Source of the DNA: Escherichia phage vB_EcoD_Opt-719
Sequence record: OL539451.1
DNA: 48,302 nt
Reading direction: 5' to 3' (one strand)
Shown: piece after piece, positions 7,047 through 45,805 of the stretch
Layout: each line of letters opens with the position of its first letter
Numbering within the stretch: position 1 is the first letter of the stretch
Notes under the pieces: model-generated
Database searches by the model: none
Seen by the model: the letters and a program-made list of their open reading frames with translations, nothing else
Told to the model about the DNA's origin: nothing
Program-made: the position numbers and the translations under genes

Positions 7047-7577
7047 ATGGCTTACACAGAAATTGCTATGGCGGTAGGGAATTCACCTGAAATCTTAGCC
7101 AGGAACGTAAAAATGATGATGTCATCTGGATTTCAGCCATATGGTGACGTCCAGATGCTAAGCGGCACTCTCTTTGGCATGAAAATGGCCAAGGGAACAG
7201 CAAACAACGTTGAAGACTTTATGGTGACATCCGACACCACAGTTCAGGGATTGATTAACAGGGTTAACCGATATCTTTTGCAGGGCTGGAAAAGGTTTGG
7301 CAATGCTCACTTTGAGGATGGAGCATATCTTTCAGCACTTGCGAAAGGTGATTTTGTAAGTGATGAAGACGGAGGCTCAGGTGAAGCAGGCCCACAAGGT
7401 CCGATTGGTCCACAGGGTCCAGCAGGTCCCGCAGGCGCAGCTGGTCCGCAAGGTCCTCAAGGTCCAACTGGTGCAACTGGCCCAGCGGGTGCGGCAGGTG
7501 CTAAAGGTGACACTGGCCCACAAGGTCCGGCAGGTCCGCAAGGTCCTCAAGGTGAAACTGGCGAGGCTGGTCCATAG
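7047..7577 (+). CDS. collagen-like repeat protein, upstream segment ending at in-frame amber
   Basis: ~110-aa N-domain then ~22 uninterrupted Gly-X-Y triplets (GPQGP...); ends at TAG 7575-7577 inside the repeat. Confidence 0.6.
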
Positions 7578-8558
7578 GGTCCTATCGGCCCAACGGGCGC
7601 CACAGGTCCGGCTGGCCCAAAAGGTGATAAAGGTGATGCAGGCCCAGTTGGCCCGGCAGGATTAACTTTCCGCGGGATGTACGACGCAGCTACTGCTTAC
7701 GTTAAAGATGATGTGGTTACATTCAATAACTCTAGCTGGTTTGCTACCGCCGCTGTGACCGGAGAGAATCCAGATGTTAGCGATTCCTGGGAGTTGCTGG
7801 CCGCGCAGGGCGCTCCAGGTCCGCAAGGCGCAACTGGTCCAGCAGGCCCAACTGGCCCGGCAGGCCCTGCAGGTATTCAGGGACCTCAGGGAGAGAGAGG
7901 GCTTCATGGTGAGCAAGGTCCGTCAGGCCCGCAAGGCTTGCAAGGTGCAGCTGGTCCAGTTGGACCTCAAGGCCCAGCAGGTCCTCAGGGTGAGCGAGGA
8001 ATACAGGGTCCGGTTGGCCCTCAAGGATTGCAGGGTGTAAAAGGTGATCCAGGCGTTAATTCTACATATACACTACCTTTAAAAAACTACCTTGTAATAG
8101 CCCTTAATGAAGAGGAGGGGGCGAGGCAGACATTCAGGGTGCCAGAAGACAGTTCGGGAGCTGAAATAGCTTTTGTGGTCAGAAATAAAGATTCTTCAAA
8201 CACTTCACCATCTGGAGTTTATGAGCTGGGATGTGGAGTGACTGGTACGGCTTCAATGCACTTTTCAGGTTGGATTATTAGTAACCTTAACCAACCAGAT
8301 AAAATAAGATCAGCCTCTATGCTAATTGCTTCCATGACTAATAGTCAGCGATACTTTACGCAGTTAGCAATAGGAACAAGGGGTGATCTTTTTAAAGGTT
8401 GCTTAACCAATCAGGAAACTGGTGAGCTATGGTACATTGAGGCTTTTGGTACCAAGCCAAGAGGGGCAGGGCAAACCGACTTAGGTAGACTCTCAGTTAA
8501 GATTGAGAAAAGAGTTGATACAGTAGTTGGAAGCTTAACAAAATTCCCAAGAGTTTAA
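7578..8558 (+). CDS. collagen-like repeat protein, downstream segment in same frame (possible readthrough product or pseudogene remnant)
   Basis: frame open immediately after the TAG; Gly-X-Y phase continues for 10 triplets, second collagen run, then ~200-aa C-terminal globular domain; first ATG at 7677. Confidence 0.5.
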
Positions 8559-12974: not shown

Positions 12975-15953
12975 ATGGCAGAATTTGCAGGTATCACTCT
13001 TGGCGTTGACGTTCGCCAGGTTGACCAGGGCACAAAGTCCCTGCAAGAATTTAAACGTGCCAATGAGCAGGCTGCGGCTGGTGTTAGCGAATTTGTTAAC
13101 GCTGAGCTAGTTGCGAAGAATCAGGCTCGCGATACTGCCAGATATCTTTCTGAGCAGCGAACTGCTTTCCGTCAGCTGCAAACCGCAATCGACCCAACGG
13201 CAGGAAAACTTCGCAAACTACAGGAAGCGGCTGACGCACTGGATAAATCCTTCTCCGCAGGAGTTGTTCCTGAGGCTGAATTCTACCGCTTAAGCGAGGC
13301 TCTTGAGACTCAGACTAACAGGCTTCGCAACTCACAGCGCGCATTGACTGAGGAAGGCAGGGCGGCAATTGAGGCATCAAAAGCCAAGGCTCAGGCAGCT
13401 ACACAGGCGGAAAGATTCCTTAAGTCTTTGCAGGCTGAAGCTCAGGCGGCAACATTAACGCGAGAGGAGCTGTTAAAGCTCAGGGCTGCTGAGTTAGGAG
13501 TCTCAAGCCAGGCTGCGCCAATTATTGCACAAATCGGAGCAGCAGCTGACCAGTCCGCAGCGGCATTAACAAGGCAGAGCCAGGCTTTGCAACGTTCCGG
13601 GCTATCTGTTGGCGCATATAAGAACGCAATACGCACACTTCCGGCGCAGATTACAGATATTGGAACCTCATTGGCTGGCGGCATTCCAATCTGGTTAATT
13701 GCAATTCAGCAGGGTGGCCAGATTAAGGATAGCTTTGGTGGTGTAGCTAACACATTCAGGTTTGCGCTTGCTGCATTAAACCCGTTCGTTGTTGCAGCTG
13801 GAGCTCTCGGTGTTGCTCTTGGTGCTCTTGGGCTATCAGCTTATCAGGCTTATCAGAACACATCACAGCTAAACCAGACGCTTACCCTGACCGGGCAATC
13901 AGCGAACTTATCAGCTGCAGCGGTTCAGAACCTAGCAAGGAATGCTGCTGAAGCTGCCGGAGCTACTCAGGGTTTAGGCCAGGAAATTGCTAATGGATTG
14001 GTCGCAAGTGGAAACCGCACGGTAGCTCAGATTTCAATTATCACTGAGGCAACTGCGCGCTGGGCTACGGTTACTGGTGATTCAGCTGACGATATCGTCA
14101 AGAACTTCGATAAAATCGCAAATGACCCGGTCAAAGGGCTGGCTGAGCTTGATAAGCAGTTTAATTTCTTAACCGCTGGTCAACTTAAGTACATCGAGCA
14201 GATTAGGGTTACAGAGGGTCAAACTCAAGCTGTAACGGCCGCCACGAAAATATTTGCTGATGTGATGGAGAATCGCTTAACCAAAGTTGCAGAGTCGCTA
14301 ACGCCGCTTGAGAGGGCTTGGGATAGCTTCAAAAACTTCGTTTCTCGGGTTTGGACAGATATCGGGAACAGAACGCTTGGCGCGCTAAACCTAATTGTAG
14401 ACGTTGTTGCTGGCACTATTGAGCAGATTCAGTTTCTGATTGGTCAGGGTGACGTTCTTATCAACAACTTCCTGATATCGACAATCAAAGCATTCCAGAA
14501 TATCCCTGGCGCTGATGGAGTTGGTAGTGAGTTGGTTCAGCAATTTGAGAAGCAAAACGAAGGGATAAAGAAAGCTAACGAGGAGTTAGTTAAGTCAGTA
14601 GCTGAGCGTGACGCAAGGATTCGTAAGGGTGAGCTTGGTTATGTCACCTCAACTCAGGAGGAGCAGCAAAGGAATGGAGAATCTGACGCTGAGTTCGAGA
14701 AACGCAGAAAGTCACGTGAGCAGGAACTTAAAGATATTGAGGCAGCGAATAAGGCAAGGAAGACTGGAGTTAAGGACCAGCAAGACCTTACTATCAACTA
14801 TGAGTCAGGCGTCTTAGCTCTACAGGCTCAGCTTAAGGTTCTTCAGGAACACCGCCAGATTAGTGATGTCATCAGTAACGAGCGAAAGCAGCTGTTCGCA
14901 GAAGAAGCAAGGTTTGCAATCCTTAATGAAAGGCTGGCTGATGGCACTATCACCAAACAGCAAAGGGCGTTACTGCTACAGCAAGATAAAATCTTAGGAC
15001 TGGCTCGTGAGAAAGCTGAGATTGGTGACCAGATTGTTCTGCAGGAAAGGGCCAATAAACTCCTTGATGATAACATCAAGAAGACTCGCCAGATTAACGC
15101 TGAAGCAGTATCAATAAGTGTTGGCGCTGGATTATCTCAGCGCGAAGCTGAAAGGAAGCGAGAGTTGGCGGCGCTAGAAGCCCAGCAGATTTCTAAAGGC
15201 GGCTCCGTAGATGACACTGACTTCCAAGCATTGTTGCAGGCTCGTCAGAATTTCTACAATCAGGAAGACGCATTACGTGGCAACTGGTTGGCTGGTGTTA
15301 AGTCTGCGTTTGCTGAGACGGCTGATGAATTAGCAAACTTCAATCAGATTGGTTCTGAATTGGCAATGAGTGCCTTCAATGGATTGACTGACCAGATTAC
15401 AAACCTGGTTACTACCGGAGAGGCAAACTTTAAAGAGTTTACCGCTTCAATTCTGAAGCAGATTGCACGCATTGCAACGCAATTACTTTTGATTAAAGCT
15501 ATTGAGTCAACCATATCTAGTTTTGGTGGTGGCGGCGGCTCAACAGGTACAGCTATAGCTAACTTTGGTAAATCTTTTGGCTTTGCATCTGGTGGCTACA
15601 CAGGTAGTGGTGGTAAGTACGAGCCAGCTGGCACGGTGCATAAAGGTGAATTCGTATTTACTAAAGAGGCAACCTCAAGGATTGGCGTTGATAACCTTTA
15701 CAAGTTGATGCGCGGATACGCAAACGGTGGGGTGGTTGGCTCTGGTCCTGGCTATGCGACTGGTGGACTTGTTGGTGGAAGCAACGTTAACGTTGGTGGA
15801 GTGAATGTTACCGTTCAGACAGGTCTTGGCGGTGGTGGCGGCAATGACGCTAAACAGTTAGAATCTGGTATCAGGGTTATCATCGCGGAAGAGATTACTC
15901 AATCTTTCCAGCAGGGCGGAACGGCTTACCAGTTCTTGCGTGGTTACAGTTAA
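12975..15953 (+). CDS. tail tape measure protein
   Basis: ~990 aa, Ala/Gln/Glu-rich coiled-coil-like regions and Gly-rich C-terminal segments; canonical position; start at ATG 12975 (track TTG 12948). Confidence 0.85.
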   Translation: MAEFAGITLGVDVRQVDQGTKSLQEFKRANEQAAAGVSEFVNAELVAKNQARDTARYLSEQRTAFRQLQTAIDPTAGKLRKLQEAADALDKSFSAGVVPEAEFYRLSEALETQTNRLRNSQRALTEEGRAAIEASKAKAQAATQAERFLKSLQAEAQAATLTREELLKLRAAELGVSSQAAPIIAQIGAAADQSAAALTRQSQALQRSGLSVGAYKNAIRTLPAQITDIGTSLAGGIPIWLIAIQQGGQIKDSFGGVANTFRFALAALNPFVVAAGALGVALGALGLSAYQAYQNTSQLNQTLTLTGQSANLSAAAVQNLARNAAEAAGATQGLGQEIANGLVASGNRTVAQISIITEATARWATVTGDSADDIVKNFDKIANDPVKGLAELDKQFNFLTAGQLKYIEQIRVTEGQTQAVTAATKIFADVMENRLTKVAESLTPLERAWDSFKNFVSRVWTDIGNRTLGALNLIVDVVAGTIEQIQFLIGQGDVLINNFLISTIKAFQNIPGADGVGSELVQQFEKQNEGIKKANEELVKSVAERDARIRKGELGYVTSTQEEQQRNGESDAEFEKRRKSREQELKDIEAANKARKTGVKDQQDLTINYESGVLALQAQLKVLQEHRQISDVISNERKQLFAEEARFAILNERLADGTITKQQRALLLQQDKILGLAREKAEIGDQIVLQERANKLLDDNIKKTRQINAEAVSISVGAGLSQREAERKRELAALEAQQISKGGSVDDTDFQALLQARQNFYNQEDALRGNWLAGVKSAFAETADELANFNQIGSELAMSAFNGLTDQITNLVTTGEANFKEFTASILKQIARIATQLLLIKAIESTISSFGGGGGSTGTAIANFGKSFGFASGGYTGSGGKYEPAGTVHKGEFVFTKEATSRIGVDNLYKLMRGYANGGVVGSGPGYATGGLVGGSNVNVGGVNVTVQTGLGGGGGNDAKQLESGIRVIIAEEITQSFQQGGTAYQFLRGYS

Positions 15954-23017: not shown

Positions 23018-23040
23018 GCCCCTTTCGGGGCTTTTTCTTT
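23017..23040. terminator. bidirectional rho-independent terminator
   Basis: hairpin AGCCCC-TTTC-GGGGCT with T-run; separates convergent plus structural genes and minus lipoprotein gene. Confidence 0.7.
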
Positions 23041-23041
23041 A

Positions 23042-23263
23042 TCAACCTCCACAATCGTGGTCTTTAAAATTCCGCTCAGAGACGTACTGAAACGAGAATG
23101 GATATCCGGCCCTAAGTAAAAACTCCTCACCGCGCTTCTGCGTGCCAAAAACATAAACAGAGTAACTCATTCCGCTTGACTCATAAATCGCCGTACAAGT
23201 GCGCTCCGGCATCGTAGAGCACCCGCCTAACGTCATTGCTGCGATAACGATTAATTTTTTCAT
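23042..23263 (-). CDS. small lipoprotein, candidate Cor-like superinfection-exclusion factor
   Basis: 73 aa from ATG 23263 (track GTG 23272); signal peptide MKKLIVIAAMTLGGC with lipobox LGGC; AAGGTG RBS; small lipoprotein next to tail genes. Confidence 0.45.
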   Translation of the reverse strand: MKKLIVIAAMTLGGCSTMPERTCTAIYESSGMSYSVYVFGTQKRGEEFLLRAGYPFSFQYVSERNFKDHDCGG

Positions 23264-23273
23264 CTCATTCACC

Positions 23274-23378
23274 TTAGAAACCGTTAAAGTTTGAAGCCAG
23301 CAGCAGAACCCAAACGAAGAAGCTGGTAGTTGCTACGCCGAAGATTGCAGAGATTAAGTTAGTGGTTAAGTTAGTCAT
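23274..23378 (-). CDS. hypothetical small membrane peptide (34 aa)
   Basis: MTNLTTNLISAIFGVATTSFFVWVLLLASNFNGF; AAGGA RBS; stop abuts lipoprotein start; same minus-strand operon. Confidence 0.3.
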   Translation of the reverse strand: MTNLTTNLISAIFGVATTSFFVWVLLLASNFNGF

Positions 23379-23444
23379 TTTGTATTCCTTAGTAAGTATG
23401 TTTCGTTTCGATGGAGTAACTATAGCAAAGGCTTCAGCGGTAGT

Positions 23445-23465
23445 CTTTAGCAAATCGTGCTATTT
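23445..23465 (-). promoter_or_regulatory. promoter-cassette motif copy (minus orientation)
   Basis: reverse complement AAATAGCACGATTTGCTAAAG followed on minus strand by TATAGT and CATCGAAACGAAAC leader toward the lipoprotein operon. Confidence 0.45.
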
Positions 23466-23820
23466 GATATACGCGTAACCGATGTAACTCGATGTATACA
23501 ATCTCATCCGCGGAAAATTGTATACGCTTTTTTACGCGCAGATACGCATTAGTTACATTTATAAATCCTTATATAATAAGGTTTTAGAGTAGTATTATTA
23601 TTATATATATTACTATGTATATCTTGTAACTACTCTCTATAGCTATGTTGGTATGTTTTTCTAAAAGACTATGTTTGATTTCCTGTTAAGGAGGAAATGC
23701 ATATAGATATAGATAGGGTGCAAAATTGGTGGATACATTGGTTACAAGAGTTACATTCAGCATCCATGCGGCCTAGAGACTAGCAAGGCGTATTTAGGTG
23801 CGTTTTACACCGATATACAA

Positions 23821-23840
23821 AATAGCACGATTAATCAAAA
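23821..23840 (+). promoter_or_regulatory. promoter-cassette motif variant
   Basis: AATAGCACGATTAATCAAAA with GGGTATAGTG ~20 bp downstream; upstream of Rha-like gene. Confidence 0.4.
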
Positions 23841-23928
23841 CGGCTGCTTCTTGATTGGGTATAGTGCACTCATCGGCAGCAATGGTGCTGCGTCTATCTA
23901 CCAAAAAATGGTAGATACAAATGAAATA

Positions 23929-23947
23929 GCTCCTCAACTTGAGGAGC
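23929..23947 (+). promoter_or_regulatory. perfect 19-bp palindrome GCTCCTCAAcTTGAGGAGC (operator or hairpin)
   Basis: 9-bp arms around one central base, ~20 bp upstream of Rha-like gene ATG; second inverted repeat ATCTACC-N7-GGTAGAT at 23896-23916. Confidence 0.4.
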
Positions 23948-23966
23948 AAGGATAAGAGAGAAGATA

Positions 23967-31180: not shown

Positions 31181-31663
31181 TTACTCTTTAGCTTTTCGTG
31201 CTGCTTCATTAGCTGCTTTAATTTTACGCCAAGAGCGACACTCTGGTTTGGTAGCTAACTCAGCATCAGTAACCACGCGCAGCATGTGACGCTTCTTGCA
31301 GCGCAGAGTAAGTGGCTTGCCGTTACCATCAAATTGAAGGTCTGGACGGCAGAATGTAGCGCGGAACCCTTCGCCAGTTCGCTTGTATCGATTGTGAGCA
31401 AGCTGGGCGCCACGTGCCGACATCATGCCGCGATTAAACCACTCCTCAACAGCCTGTCGAGTAACCTTTAATTGCTTCGCCATATTAGCCTTGCTGCCGT
31501 AGAAGTCTAAAACAATCTCAAGCCTCGCCCTTAAACCCGCTCTTACTTCATCCTTTAACACATAGTAACCTGACGGTCGTTTGCGAGGTTTTTTGTCTTC
31601 TGTTCGTATTGTTCCGTTATTACCGTTAAGGGTACGCTTATCAATTTCACACACTTTTATCAC
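31181..31663 (-). CDS. putative HTH DNA-binding protein
   Basis: 160 aa; helix-turn-helix-like segment SKANMAKQLKVTRQAVEEWFNRG; basic N- and C-termini; divergent from helicase gene. Confidence 0.4.
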   Translation of the reverse strand: MIKVCEIDKRTLNGNNGTIRTEDKKPRKRPSGYYVLKDEVRAGLRARLEIVLDFYGSKANMAKQLKVTRQAVEEWFNRGMMSARGAQLAHNRYKRTGEGFRATFCRPDLQFDGNGKPLTLRCKKRHMLRVVTDAELATKPECRSWRKIKAANEAARKAKE

Positions 31664-31665
31664 CT

Positions 31666-31685
31666 CGATAGCACTTTTTGTTAAA
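31666..31685 (+). promoter_or_regulatory. promoter-cassette motif copy
   Basis: CGATAGCACTTTTTGTTAAA then GATGGCTGTTATTATAAC and GTCAATCGAACGAAC leader before helicase ATG. Confidence 0.5.
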
Positions 31686-31747
31686 CATTGTCTTTGATGG
31701 CTGTTATTATAACGTCAATCGAACGAACATGAAAGGCATTTGAGAAC

Positions 31748-39006: not shown

Positions 39007-39338
39007 TTAAATAATTCCTCGTCTGTCATTTCTTTTATCGTCATCATCTCATTGGTGTACTTATCACTCTCACCATTAAGGCATCTGAAGCTAAATCCGA
39101 ATGGTCGCTTCATGCTTCCTTTACTCCAGTAATTACCATTAACTCCATCGATGTAACCTTCAGTCATACATCTTGCCAGAAACTCCTTTGACGCGGATGA
39201 TGCAAAGTAACGCGTAGTAACTCCAGCCGCTTTAGCCATTCTTTCACAGTCTTTATGGCGGTAAATGAACACCGCCAGATGCTGCCTGTTAAATCTCTCG
39301 TAGCTCTCGCAGAACTTGAACACATCTAGTAAAAACAT
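39003..39338 (-). CDS. hypothetical protein (111 aa)
   Basis: minus-strand ORF with GGGTGA RBS; overlaps downstream gene start. Confidence 0.4.
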   Translation of the reverse strand: MFLLDVFKFCESYERFNRQHLAVFIYRHKDCERMAKAAGVTTRYFASSASKEFLARCMTEGYIDGVNGNYWSKGSMKRPFGFSFRCLNGESDKYTNEMMTIKEMTDEELFK

Positions 39339-39437: not shown

Positions 39438-41021
39438 TCACCCCAGCAGTCGTGGATTAATGTAAACCTTATCACCAATCAGGCAGGTGTAGTTTTTCTC
39501 ATCAAGCATCGGAAGTAAATGGTCTTTAATCTTAGCCATTACGCCAGCCTGAGCCTCAAACGGTCTAACCTTACGTGCCGCTTCATAGAGTGATCGCAAC
39601 CCCACCACTCCTTTACTGTTCTTTCCTTGCTTAATAAGAATATCAATTAGCTTGTTCATCTCTGCATTATCACCAGCGTGACCAGCAGCATTAGCGGAAG
39701 ACAAGTAAGTCTTACTCAGTTCTTCAAACATAAGAAGAGCTTCTTGCATCGTTTCAAGCCCAATCTCCCTGGACTTCTGCGGACTCCCTCCGTTTGGATT
39801 AAACCAGTTACGGATAGTGTGAAGAACTGCCGCTATCCTGATTACCTGCTTATCCATTTTACCTAACGCTCCGCGCAACATTGTGTGCGAGTACTTACCG
39901 CCATCTGCAAGGTGCGGCTCCATTTCCTGACGAGCACGGTTGAGGTGCTTCATTGCTGAATTACTGACAGTTAGTTTTACATCTTGCTCGCTCATTATTT
40001 CATGAACAAGACGAAAGTAATCTGCCTTTAATCCACCATCAATTGGTTTATATGTTGACTCGCCCTCATCATCAACAAACACACGCTCACCAAGGAATGA
40101 CTTCTCGCGCACAAGAAGGAAACGCTCTGATACACCGATACCGCGAGCGCCAGCATTCATGATTGCGACGATTGTTTCATCCTGCGCAATTACAGAAATG
40201 CAACCCATAGCAATAAAGCTCATGTTGTTCTCTGCGTTCGCACGCGCGATAGATACGTTACCAGCATCCCAGGCCTTCAGAACAAGTTCGCTGTTAGTTT
40301 TCTTCGAGCCATCACCGTAAGTCATACCAAGAAGTGAGTTAACACTTGTCGCTTCATCAGAAATCACGGAGAAGTTGCCCTGGCGGTTGTTGATTCGCGC
40401 AAGACCTTCCGGGGTAGTATCAGATACCGGAAACACAATGTCGCACAGCTTTTCTAACTTCTCTTCCAACTCCTCTTTATCTTCGAATAATCCAGCCATC
40501 TCAGATGGTGACTTCTCTTGCTTCATTTCTTTTGCCAGGGCTGACAATTTAGCCATAATCTTCTTACGGTCACGCTTGCGTAATTCGTTCAATCGCTCAG
40601 TCTCAGCAATCATTGGCGCTAGTGCGAGTGAGTTAATAGCTGACTTACCAGTTGATGGAGGCTGACTGGTTACTACGTACAGCGCGGTAGGCTGCTGAGT
40701 TCCATGATACTCAACCGTAAAGCGACCAAGCATTGCTGCTGAAATACACCCAAGGAAGTGCATGTAAGCTGAAGACTCTGGGAACTGAACTGAGCGTGCG
40801 ATATTGCTTGATAATTTACCAACGACATCACAATCATTTCCTAGCGAGATGACCGGATATTTGTCACCAGTTGAATCAATTTCTACCGGAGCCTTCCAGA
40901 ATGATGCACTCTGTCGATAACCATTGGCATTAATAGCAACTCGCAATGGTGGTAAATTTTCAGCTGCCGCAACAGACATTACTTGTTCGACTGATAATTT
41001 ATCTTCGTTAAAATCAAACAT
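39438..41021 (-). CDS. P-loop NTPase with N- and C-terminal modules shared with mini-paralog 43328..43870
   Basis: 527 aa; deviant Walker A QPPSTGKS (aa ~120-127) and Walker B FSVISDEAT (aa ~218-224); N-terminal 45 aa and C-terminal ~75 aa ~60-65% identical to the 180-aa plus-strand protein. Confidence 0.55.
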   Translation of the reverse strand: MFDFNEDKLSVEQVMSVAAAENLPPLRVAINANGYRQSASFWKAPVEIDSTGDKYPVISLGNDCDVVGKLSSNIARSVQFPESSAYMHFLGCISAAMLGRFTVEYHGTQQPTALYVVTSQPPSTGKSAINSLALAPMIAETERLNELRKRDRKKIMAKLSALAKEMKQEKSPSEMAGLFEDKEELEEKLEKLCDIVFPVSDTTPEGLARINNRQGNFSVISDEATSVNSLLGMTYGDGSKKTNSELVLKAWDAGNVSIARANAENNMSFIAMGCISVIAQDETIVAIMNAGARGIGVSERFLLVREKSFLGERVFVDDEGESTYKPIDGGLKADYFRLVHEIMSEQDVKLTVSNSAMKHLNRARQEMEPHLADGGKYSHTMLRGALGKMDKQVIRIAAVLHTIRNWFNPNGGSPQKSREIGLETMQEALLMFEELSKTYLSSANAAGHAGDNAEMNKLIDILIKQGKNSKGVVGLRSLYEAARKVRPFEAQAGVMAKIKDHLLPMLDEKNYTCLIGDKVYINPRLLG

Positions 41022-41081: not shown

Positions 41082-41100
41082 TTAACAAAAAGTGCTATTT
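41082..41100 (-). promoter_or_regulatory. promoter-cassette motif copy (minus orientation)
   Basis: reverse complement AAATAGCACTTTTTGTTAA; abuts stop of 41099..41452. Confidence 0.5.
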
Positions 41101-42138: not shown

Positions 42139-42191
42139 CTGATATCTCCTCGTTGTCGATGTGATAACTATAACCAATCAGGGCTGAATGG

Positions 42192-42211
42192 TCATTAGCA
42201 AAAAGTGCTAT
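42192..42211 (-). promoter_or_regulatory. promoter-cassette motif copy (minus orientation)
   Basis: reverse complement AATAGCACTTTTTGCTAATG with TATAGT and CATCGACAACGAGGAG leader toward 41920..42138. Confidence 0.5.
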
Positions 42212-42214
42212 TCG

Positions 42215-42345
42215 TTCGATTTATGGATTGTTGCAGATATTGCAATGATTCACTTCACTATTGCATGTATAGCAATATTGCATCGATTGCAATGATTTTC
42301 TGGACTGTTGCGAAATTTAGCAATGATTGATGGATTGATGGAATG
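42215..42345. repeat. iteron-like array (GCAATGATT x3, ATTGCAAT palindromes, ATTGATGG x2); candidate origin/operator
   Basis: approx. coordinates; three direct GCAATGATT copies near 42241, 42288, 42319, two perfect ATTGCAAT palindromes and several ATTGCA/TAGCAAT half-sites in an ORF-free divergent region. Confidence 0.5.
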
Positions 42346-42509
42346 AAGGAGGGCGCATCAACTAGTTGGTTGGTTTTAGCTTACACGAGGAGCTTTCCTT
42401 TATATACGCGTTATGGCTTGTTCAACCGTGTGGAGAAATTGCCATATTTACGCCATCCACGCCAGTTTACGCGCTGGTTACAAAATAAATCCCTTATATA
42501 ACAACCTTT

Positions 42510-42540
42510 TAGATTTATTATTATTATTATTATTATATAT
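42510..42540. repeat. (TTA)n microsatellite in AT-rich spacer
   Basis: approx. coordinates; TTATTATTATTATTATTAT followed by ATATATG; candidate DNA-unwinding element next to iterons. Confidence 0.4.
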
Positions 42541-42812
42541 GTTATCCCGTAACCATGATTATCCAAGATATTGGTGATATTTTTTTGATATTGCGCGGCG
42601 CATAAAGATTTAGATAAAGAGATAGGGATGCAAGTGGGGTGGAGAAAATGGCTTAACAGACCATAACGGCAATAACAGCCTTGATATGACTAGCGTCAGC
42701 ATGTAACAATTTAGCATAACGTGCGATTACTGAGTTGAACGTGTAAATAATGCTTGCGACATTCACCCATCATGGTAAGATGCTCTCACACTAAACGAGA
42801 GGAGTAGTAAAA

Positions 42813-43328
42813 ATGAGTAATACAATTCGTGAAGCAAACCCGACACTTGGCGACCTGGTGCGCCACCTTGTTAAGATGGCACTCAATTCAGAGGATGGAA
42901 GCGTAACAGTTCCCGTTAAGTTGCTTTACAAGAATCTTTACGGAGAAATTGATAACGGCTATGTAGCAGCCGACTTTAGACCTGGCGGCAAATATTCACT
43001 TCCAAAGCTTAAGGCTTCCTATGTTTCAAATACAGCCAGTAGAATGCAGGAAGTTAAAGACGCAGATAAGCGCGCAAGGTTCTCTTGTGGAGAGATGGAT
43101 TATAATGGTGATGAGCATTATTGCGTAAAAATCACAATGGTCGACGGAGCTGTTAAGAATGGAACCCGAGCTAAGACAAGCAGTCAATTAGAGGAGAAAG
43201 CGGTAAGCGAGTTTAAAGCCAGGCTACTTAAGCTTTCCCCTAGCGTTGCAGGCATGAGTGGTGATGAACTTAAGGGCGCGGTAACTATGATTAACGCATA
43301 TCAGGAAATGATTAAGGAGACTAAATAA
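42813..43328 (+). CDS. hypothetical protein (171 aa)
   Basis: first gene of rightward early block; GAGAGGAG RBS. Confidence 0.5.
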   Translation: MSNTIREANPTLGDLVRHLVKMALNSEDGSVTVPVKLLYKNLYGEIDNGYVAADFRPGGKYSLPKLKASYVSNTASRMQEVKDADKRARFSCGEMDYNGDEHYCVKITMVDGAVKNGTRAKTSSQLEEKAVSEFKARLLKLSPSVAGMSGDELKGAVTMINAYQEMIKETK

Positions 43329-43870
43329 TGTTTGATTTCAAAGAGGATAAACTTACTTATGAGCAGGTGTTAGCAGCAGCAGCGGCAGACAATCTGCCTC
43401 CCTTGCGAGTATCAATAATTGCAAATGGTTACCGACAATCTGCAAATCTATGGCCTGAACTGGATAAGGTCAAAGATTTCGAACTAGACACTGGAGCTTT
43501 AAAGATTATAGAAATCCTCATTAATCAAGGAATGAGCAGTAAAGGTGTCGTTGGTCTCGGGTCACTATATAATACAGTAAGGAAAGTTAAACCATTCGAA
43601 GGTAAAAGTGAAGTAATTATGGATATCAGAGATGTCATCATCCCAAACCTTGATAAGCTTGGCTATGCATGCCTAATCGGAGATAAGATTTACATCAACC
43701 CTAAACTGCTTGATGGCAACCAGGACTGGACTTACAAGGTTAAGCTGCTGGAAGATGATTTCAACATCGACGATTGCGAGAAGATTGTTGACGAGATTAC
43801 TATCAAGGCAATTGATGAGCAAATCGAGAGGCTCAAGCGGAAGAAGAAGTACCTCCTGACCGGTAAATAG
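43328..43870 (+). CDS. ATPase-less mini-paralog of the 39438..41021 P-loop protein
   Basis: 180 aa; MFDFKEDKLTYEQVLAAAAADNLPPLRVSIIANGYRQSA and KGVVGLGSLY...CLIGDKIYINPKLL match the N- and C-termini of the 527-aa protein; ATG overlaps upstream TAA. Confidence 0.55.
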   Translation: MFDFKEDKLTYEQVLAAAAADNLPPLRVSIIANGYRQSANLWPELDKVKDFELDTGALKIIEILINQGMSSKGVVGLGSLYNTVRKVKPFEGKSEVIMDIRDVIIPNLDKLGYACLIGDKIYINPKLLDGNQDWTYKVKLLEDDFNIDDCEKIVDEITIKAIDEQIERLKRKKKYLLTGK

Positions 43871-45592: not shown

Positions 45593-45805
45593 ATGGATAC
45601 TGGAATTTTACGCATTGACGATGTTCACTTTGACCAGGCTGAGGTCAGTGTCACCAAGTTAACCTTTCGAGGTAATGTTGTTAGCCTTGACTTCGATCCT
45701 GACGACTACGGCGACGGTCAAACACTTATGCAATACTCACCTGTTGCGGCCCGCAAATTAGCGGCGGCATTAATCCTGGCGGCAGAAGAGGCGGAAGAGC
45801 AATGA
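45593..45805 (+). CDS. hypothetical protein (70 aa)
   Basis: start ATG 45593 with GAGGAA RBS (track ATG 45587 has no spacing); Ala-rich acidic C-terminus. Confidence 0.4.
   Translation: MDTGILRIDDVHFDQAEVSVTKLTFRGNVVSLDFDPDDYGDGQTLMQYSPVAARKLAAALILAAEEAEEQ

Follow-up and report, generated by a model that had tools for sequence, protein, structure and literature searches.

Arrays of short repeats are typical of small-terminase (TerS) sites, as in SPP1 pacL/pacR, lambda cosB and P1 pac, and in phage phi29 the early and the late promoters diverge from the p4 switch region, which holds several sites of the inverted-repeat type. Phage T1 is one of the classical T phages, and the Drexlerviridae are common therapy candidates as well as fermentation contaminants. 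According to the recent papers on SU57 and TLS, the origin, the pac recognition sequence and the transcriptional programme of the Drexlerviridae are undefined. The pac of TLS was mapped by restriction digests to a spot homologous to the locus described here, 198 bp from the left gene, and its fine placement followed from resemblance to P22 pac. PhageTerm places an end of SU57 about 45 bp to the right of the corresponding array position. Furthermore, a 21-nt direct repeat (DR; aaATAGCACnnnTTGnTAAAA) has been reported for TLS, T1, Rtp and Rogue1, and its function is listed as an open question (PMC11447400). From the literature, DUF3987 proteins are MCM-like SF6 replicative helicases with a C-terminal wHTH, and DNA unwinding has been shown for one of them.

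The window, that is, the whole stretch of 48,302 bp that was analysed (OL539451.1, Escherichia phage vB_EcoD_Opt-719), is a complete T1-like phage genome (Drexlerviridae, Rogunavirinae) with 99.9% identity to vB_EcoD_Phleasolo, Klebsiella phage Opt-79 and phage Sadiya. The sequence-only reading had placed a set of repeats in an ORF-free region between divergent operons, and such a region is indeed present between the p72 arm and the 171-aa ORF:

42139-42812, unstranded: divergent control region without conserved ORF, 674 bp between two operons
left of the control region, minus strand: leftward operon of p72, p79, p50 and p117, then the 527-aa helicase
42138, minus strand: ATG start of p72, with a good RBS (GAGGAG)
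42813 and 43328, plus strand: rightward early genes, headed by those for the DUF7174 protein of 171 aa (42813) and for p180, the protein of 180 aa (43328)

A 40-aa ORF on the plus strand (42223-42345; annotated in Phleasolo, AKS96) lies wholly within the dyad array and is labelled "membrane protein" in some records. Its ATG is missing in IME542 and phiA2-1. Since the start codon is lost in these relatives, the ORF is not a conserved coding sequence, and it is probably a spurious gene call. GC skew was rejected as an origin indicator, because it merely tracks the direction of transcription.

The array itself consists of four 17-18-bp dyads of the form RTTGC-N7/8-GCAAY, termed O1-O4, which lie within 95 bp (42230-42324) and have their centres 30, 17 and 30 bp apart:

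42230-42246, unstranded: dyad O1, GTTGC-AGATATT-GCAAT
42260-42276, unstranded: dyad O2, ATTGC-ATGTATA-GCAAT
42277-42293, unstranded: dyad O3, ATTGC-ATCGATT-GCAAT
42307-42324, unstranded: dyad O4, GTTGC-GAAATTTA-GCAAT, with an N8 spacer
42325-42350, plus strand: tandem GATTGATG, 3.2 copies with a period of 8, followed by a G-rich tail; kept only in Rogunavirus-type relatives

O1+O2 and O3+O4 form a 47-bp tandem duplication, by which the four-dyad array was built. The motif ATTGC/GCAAT occurs 8 times in 110 bp of the array, compared to 4 times at the next best place in the genome and at most 5 times in 200 shuffles. For RTTGC/GCAAY the array holds 10 copies and the next best place 5. Outside the array a single RTTGC-N7/8-GCAAY dyad was found, at 15462; shuffled genomes contained on average 0.77 and at most 4 such dyads genome-wide. 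The individual repeats that had been described from the letters are all there: GCAATGATT is exact at 42242, 42289 and 42320 (with one further genome copy at 45799), the palindrome ATTGCAAT lies at 42239 and 42286, the tandem GATTGATG occupies the place listed above, and the (TTA)n plus AT tract announced about 170 bp downstream corresponds to (TTA)7.3 at 42515-42536, 170 bp from the array. Their description as an iteron-like array was right in that the repeats are present beyond chance, but the basic unit is a 17-18-bp inverted repeat and not a 9-bp direct repeat. Similarly, ATTGC/GCAAT half-sites are enriched in the array as proposed, but the TAGCA-type site at 42193-42211 belongs to a dispersed promoter element outside of it.

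A reading of the array as a promoter cluster was rejected, as a consensus scan found no sigma-70 promoter inside it. The plus strand of the array folds with z = -2.9, and an RNA element was therefore considered. No Rfam match to the array region was obtained, and compensatory changes were seen at 0 of 22 predicted pairs in 16 sequences (covariation term -0.08). Given the lack of both, a structured RNA is unlikely. This candidate was rejected, and the fold reflects only the palindromic motifs.

Several further elements were identified, in the control region and, in the case of C2, elsewhere in the genome:

42167-42211, minus strand: leftward promoter PL, with a marbox-like element at 42211-42193 (ATAGCACTTTTTGCTAATG), a weak -35 (ATGACC) and the -10 TATAGT at 42172-42167
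42403-42470, plus strand: four (A/T)TACGC repeats, the last three 9-11 bp apart; kept in all subfamilies including T1
42480-42545, unstranded: AT-rich block with (TTA)7, which together with the TACGC repeats forms "element C1"
23470-23640, unstranded: element C2, a paralog of the TACGC plus AT-rich element, without dyads
42709-42727, minus strand: leftward-facing, perfect match to the marbox consensus that lacks a clear -10 hexamer
42754-42781, plus strand: PR (TTGCGA-16-TAAGAT), a candidate promoter that would read rightward into the 171-aa gene

A distance of 19 bp separates the start of O1 from the marbox element of PL, on the upstream side of that element. The array lies 20-115 bp upstream of PL, and no dyad overlaps the -35 or -10 of this promoter. 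PR is plausible as a rightward promoter from reading the sequence; at the aligned place the relatives carry TTGAYN-17-xAATAT. The element at 42727 has an analogue in T1, a second leftward DR to the right of the T1 dyads. No 50-mer of the genome is less stable than 42495-42545, which lies within the AT-rich block, and the one at 23571 comes out about equal. C2 sits in the other large divergent ORF-free region (23018-23966), which has marbox-type promoters on both sides. This region is 80-82% conserved in ESCO41 and DTL, and the TACGC plus AT-rich element is likewise duplicated there. The existence of a paralogous AT-rich copy at 23.5 kb indicates that the AT-rich element is real and conserved, but not specific to the array. 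The C2 region, which ranks among the genome's two least stable stretches, is itself a candidate, either for an origin or for a regulatory element.

To the right of the AT-rich block we also observed lineage-specific short tandem repeats. The window carries GATATTG three times (42565-42593), T1 carries CGATTAACA three times with an 11-bp period (L003, 397-425), and TLS carries CGTGAACA twice (L022, about 395-420). The reverse complement of the TLS unit, TGTTCACG, resembles the P4 type I iteron.

The marbox-like element of PL is one of about 16 dispersed copies of the 21-nt repeat that share a common layout, in which a weak -35 comes after the element and then, beyond a spacer, a TATAGT-like -10 and an CATCGAAACGA leader. 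The elements lie at 2252, 23463(-), 23822, 26263, 31668, 34064, 35606, 36894, 37159, 41098(-), 41534(-), 42211(-), 42727(-), 43867, 45519 and 46524. We compared them with the MarA/SoxS/Rob marbox consensus AYnGCACnnWnnRYYAAAY (PMC3709825). The window contains 16 matches with at most one mismatch, where 1.06 are expected; the copies at 41098 and at 42211, the latter being that of PL, have two mismatches. Comparable numbers were found in T1 (21), TLS (21), ESCO41 (15), DTL (14) and ACG-M12 (17), while shuffles of those genomes gave at most 4 and lambda gave 0. A class II marbox is defined by forward orientation and a centre between -36 and -55 (PMC12052159). The DR copies are in forward orientation, their 19-mer ends 19-20 nt before the TATAGT-like -10 and their centre lies at about -41, which is the class II position. 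This suggests that host Rob, MarA or SoxS, or a mimic of them, may drive the DR promoters. No literature linking the marbox to phage promoters was found. If Rob, MarA or SoxS do drive these promoters, the question left open in 2024 would be answered and phage gene expression would be tied to the host stress and antibiotic-resistance regulon. This observation may matter more than the array itself.

In 133 phage records the array stretch was recovered with an identity of 80-90%. When 17 control regions of Drexlerviridae were aligned, the TTGC/GCAA cores proved near-invariant while the spacers drift, a combination that is the footprint of protein-binding sites. The cores of O1 stay nearly unchanged in 16 phages, and O4 is degraded in DTL, BEK3 and 12469II. 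The flanking genes diverge much further: in ESCO41, DTL and ACG-M12, p72 is either missing or no more than 36% identical, and for DUF7174 the identity is 32-39%. T1 has two dyads 30 bp apart at the corresponding locus, upstream of a DR promoter, and ACG-M12 and TLS have none there, although both retain helicase and primase. For a wider sample we used 80 IMG/VR loci anchored on the helicase and counted dyad clusters with one mismatch allowed. Four-dyad clusters were present in all loci with a helicase of at least 88% identity whose sequence still reaches the control region. Two loci with a helicase identity of 73% (L047 and L048) have three dyads, and a lineage with 70% helicase and 57% regulator identity has dyad pairs 31 bp apart upstream of a DR promoter. 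Among the 80 loci, no dyads were detected in the TLS-like and Klebsiella Webervirus-like lineages. The presence of dyads in T1 and in divergent IMG/VR lineages implies that the motif is older than the four-site array. We conclude that O1-O4 are a cluster of conserved palindromic, predicted protein-binding sites that is unique in the genome and under purifying selection.

In TLS the array position (at the L023/L022 junction, some 90-120 bp to the right of where the left gene starts) is occupied by a tandem palindrome, TAGACCGATTGGTC, in two copies. Compared with the array-bearing phages, TLS thus shows different repeats in the same place.

Three proteins had been put forward as candidate binders, namely the 527-aa, the 180-aa and an HTH protein. 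This choice is reasonable, with the 527-aa protein assigned by its predicted domains to the DUF3987 helicases and the 180-aa protein as its paralog:

31181-31663, minus strand: Cro-like HTH "transcriptional regulator", 160 aa, candidate dyad binder
39438-41021, minus strand: DUF3987 (SF6, MCM-like) replicative helicase, 527 aa, with a C-terminal winged helix, rival candidate binder
43328-43870, plus strand: p180, a helicase paralog without ATPase, made of the helicase N-terminus and winged helix

Residues 1-50 of p180 correspond to residues 1-53 of the helicase (64% identity), and residues 59-128 to helicase residues 457-526 (60%). To compare the partners, we set the window against ESCO41, DTL, ACG-M12, TLS and T1, with identities given relative to the window and the helicase values given for its N-terminal 55 aa and its C-terminal 75 aa:

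ESCO41: four-dyad array present; regulator 92%; helicase 87/89%; p180 present
DTL: four-dyad array present; regulator 90%; helicase 85/95%; p180 present
ACG-M12: no four-dyad array; regulator 70%; helicase 56/69%; p180 absent
TLS: no four-dyad array; regulator 47%; helicase 49/57%; p180 absent
T1: two dyads only; regulator 54%; helicase 36/47%; p180 absent

Among these six genomes, p180 is found only in the three that bear the array (window, ESCO41 and DTL); ACG-M12 has merely a faint match to its N-terminal part, at 1034-1144. The N-terminal and winged-helix domains of the helicase track the four-dyad array in ESCO41, DTL, ACG-M12 and TLS, but T1 breaks the pattern. The regulator forms an island of conservation across genera, with about 90% identity in ESCO41 and DTL versus 44-52% in DTL for its neighbours, the primase and the SNF2 helicase. 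At the level of records, the regulator reaches at least 80% in 128 and the helicase in 144, compared to 133 with the array. The regulator's own promoter region (31664-31747) contains no dyad, and its recognition helix differs between T1 and the window (SNQTVQGW against TRQAVEEW) although T1 keeps the half-site. A rule by which Gln at position 3 of this helix predicts dyads held in six genomes and failed on the IMG/VR loci, because Webervirus regulators carry the Gln and yet have no dyads. We also rejected p79 as a partner of the array, as it is 90% conserved in ACG-M12, which has no array. A screen of gene presence and absence revealed no protein exclusive to the dyad-bearing genomes. Neither the putative helicase winged helix nor a simple feature of the predicted regulator recognition helix predicts the dyads cleanly.

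In our judgement the array is best read, if tentatively, as a multi-operator switch. O1-O4 would be dyad-symmetric operators for a dimeric sequence-specific DNA-binding protein, of which the Cro-like HTH regulator (31181-31663) would be the likeliest representative. Cooperative occupation of O1-O4 would switch transcription of the leftward replication-gene arm, and an occupied array might in addition stop transcripts arriving from the leftward promoter on its right-hand side, at 42727. Overall, it would act as an early/middle switch in the main divergent early control region. Both the identity of the binder and the regulatory outcome are what we infer. HTH dimers usually recognise a dyad of 17 bp with arms of 5 bp, and dyads of 14-20 bp, several per control region, are seen here as four copies of RTTGC-N7/8-GCAAY at a spacing of 30-17-30 bp, directly upstream of a promoter with a conserved layout. 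Ahead of the same DR promoter, T1 and the divergent IMG/VR lineage have retained a pair of dyads at a distance of 30-31 bp, and the array stays at 80-90% in its 133 records while p72 and DUF7174 are at most 39% identical or absent in ESCO41, DTL and ACG-M12. The regulator is 90-92% identical in array-bearing phages, as opposed to 70%, 54% and 47% in ACG-M12, T1 and TLS, and the record counts agree (128 and 133). However, within the array-bearing group the co-variation with the array is just as good for the terminal domains of the helicase and for p180, no dyad lies in the promoter region of the regulator itself, and the core of PL is not overlapped by one. T1, moreover, retains the half-site despite a different recognition helix, which makes a host factor possible. 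Such a host protein would use the array as a binding-site cluster, either for regulation or as a titration sink. CytR, a LacI-family repressor with the octamer GTTGCATT, would be an example, and the half-sites presumably resemble its sites. The RTTGC(A) half-site persists at this locus in lineages with a regulator and helicase only 54-73% identical to those of the window, and the adjacent promoter element looks like a host-factor (marbox) site, but dyads are missing in Klebsiella-infecting relatives and in TLS. We regard a host protein as a very improbable reader of the array. The main competitor of the switch is replication. Here the dyads would be lambda-type iterons bound by the winged helix of the DUF3987 helicase, with p180 as modulator, and melting would occur at the nearby TACGC/AT-rich element, aided by the flanking promoters. 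The uniqueness of the array, its clustering of four repeated sites within 95 bp, its proximity to the helicase, the DUE-like AT-rich block nearby and the fact that no origin is known in the family all speak for such a role. Nevertheless, 170 bp separate the AT-rich block from O4 and its paralog at 23.5 kb is devoid of dyads, ACG-M12 (with a helicase of 81%) and TLS have no dyads at this locus, and T1, which has dyads, lacks p180 and carries the winged helix that diverges most (47%). In addition, the winged helix has a predicted recognition helix of acidic and hydrophobic, not basic, character. Foldseek gave no significant match, and no convincing DnaA box, GATC or perfect IHF site was found at the candidate origin. 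We consider iterons read by the helicase possible but doubtful, and the complete scheme, in which array and TACGC/AT-rich element form a T1-like origin read by the DUF3987 winged helix with p180 as an origin-binding regulator or licensing factor, unlikely. The sequence-only reading had offered an origin or a master operator. The core common to both stands, namely a conserved, unique cis-acting cluster of predicted protein sites in the early control region from which the operons diverge. For a "classic origin architecture" the case is not made, given an AT-rich element that is 170 bp off and duplicated at 23.5 kb, relatives such as ACG-M12 and TLS without dyads, and a winged helix that fails to track the motif once T1 is included.

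A last reading concerns DNA packaging, with the array as the proposed binding site of the small terminase and the first headful cut falling next to it. The T1 record begins on the first base of its first dyad (GTTGCATGGTGTGCAAC), and 1-2800 are annotated as terminal repeat. In T1 (L003, 1-47), position 1 opens a perfect 17-bp palindrome, GTTGCAtggtgTGCAAC, and the second dyad follows 30 bp on. The ends of TLS and SU57 fall in the same control region, and TerS is P22 gp3-like. The presence of the T1, TLS and SU57 termini here places pac within this control region in the family; the evidence for a physical end near the site is at the level of the region and comes from published records and papers on these other phages, and the exact starts of T1 and TLS were partly picked from sequence motifs. 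Against a role of the array itself, ACG-M12 and DTL have TerS proteins of 89% identity, but of the two phages DTL alone carries the array. Conversely, TerS is merely 58-67% identical among phages that share the array, similar to the distance to T1 (52-57%). At 80% identity or more, TerS of the window type was found in 31 records and TerS of the ESCO41 type in 13, versus 133 with the array. In sequence comparison, the array does not track TerS, a double dissociation that speaks against recognition of the array by TerS. The small terminase is thereby removed as a likely reader of the array, and a pac function of O1-O4 is improbable.

P22-pac-like AGATTT motifs at 42511 and 42607 were considered as well and rejected; their conservation ends with the close relatives, and chance alone would yield an 8-mer match. 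In the lambda "esp" test, the terminal palindrome of T1 has a 14/15 match at 42840-42854 of lambda, which is not statistically significant (E about 0.8), and the motif density there is unexceptional. This match lies in the ninG region, and the stretch 42820-42856 (L025) additionally holds two GCAAT motifs. The P-Q interval of lambda, in which the ninG match lies, is a place where T1 can initiate packaging. At a different locus of the window, 7385-7873, we noticed long runs of 9-bp units GGTCCnCAn, which are Gly-X-Y-like and suggest collagen-like repeats in a structural protein.

A discrete, strongly conserved set of four sites, together with three candidate binders, makes a vague "UTR with repeats" directly testable. 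Among the known systems, the origin of lambda is similar in having four internally palindromic sites of about 17-19 bp within about 100 bp and an AT-rich region on one side (its iterons are annotated at 39034-39118 in the lambda record). However, the lambda iterons lie inside the initiator gene and abut the AT-rich stretch, whereas the array described here is intergenic and its AT-rich block is 170 bp off and duplicated elsewhere. The putative initiator would also be an MCM-like helicase and not an O-type protein. The phi29 switch region offers a parallel to the operators that we favour. In both cases a virulent phage has four dyads over 100-200 bp between divergent promoters, with a possible switch between transcription classes. 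The two share no sequence or protein homology, no late promoter was identified beside the array, and the operator role is a predicted one here. The dispersed 21-nt repeats have one copy (42193-42211) immediately left of the array, but they are spread over the genome in about 16 copies, while the dyad array is a separate, locus-specific motif. Finally, the pac region of T1, TLS and SU57 is the same non-coding locus, with the small-gene/helicase arm running leftward on one side and the early genes running rightward on the other, and the termini fall within or adjoin the dyads. It differs in that the array does not co-vary with TerS.
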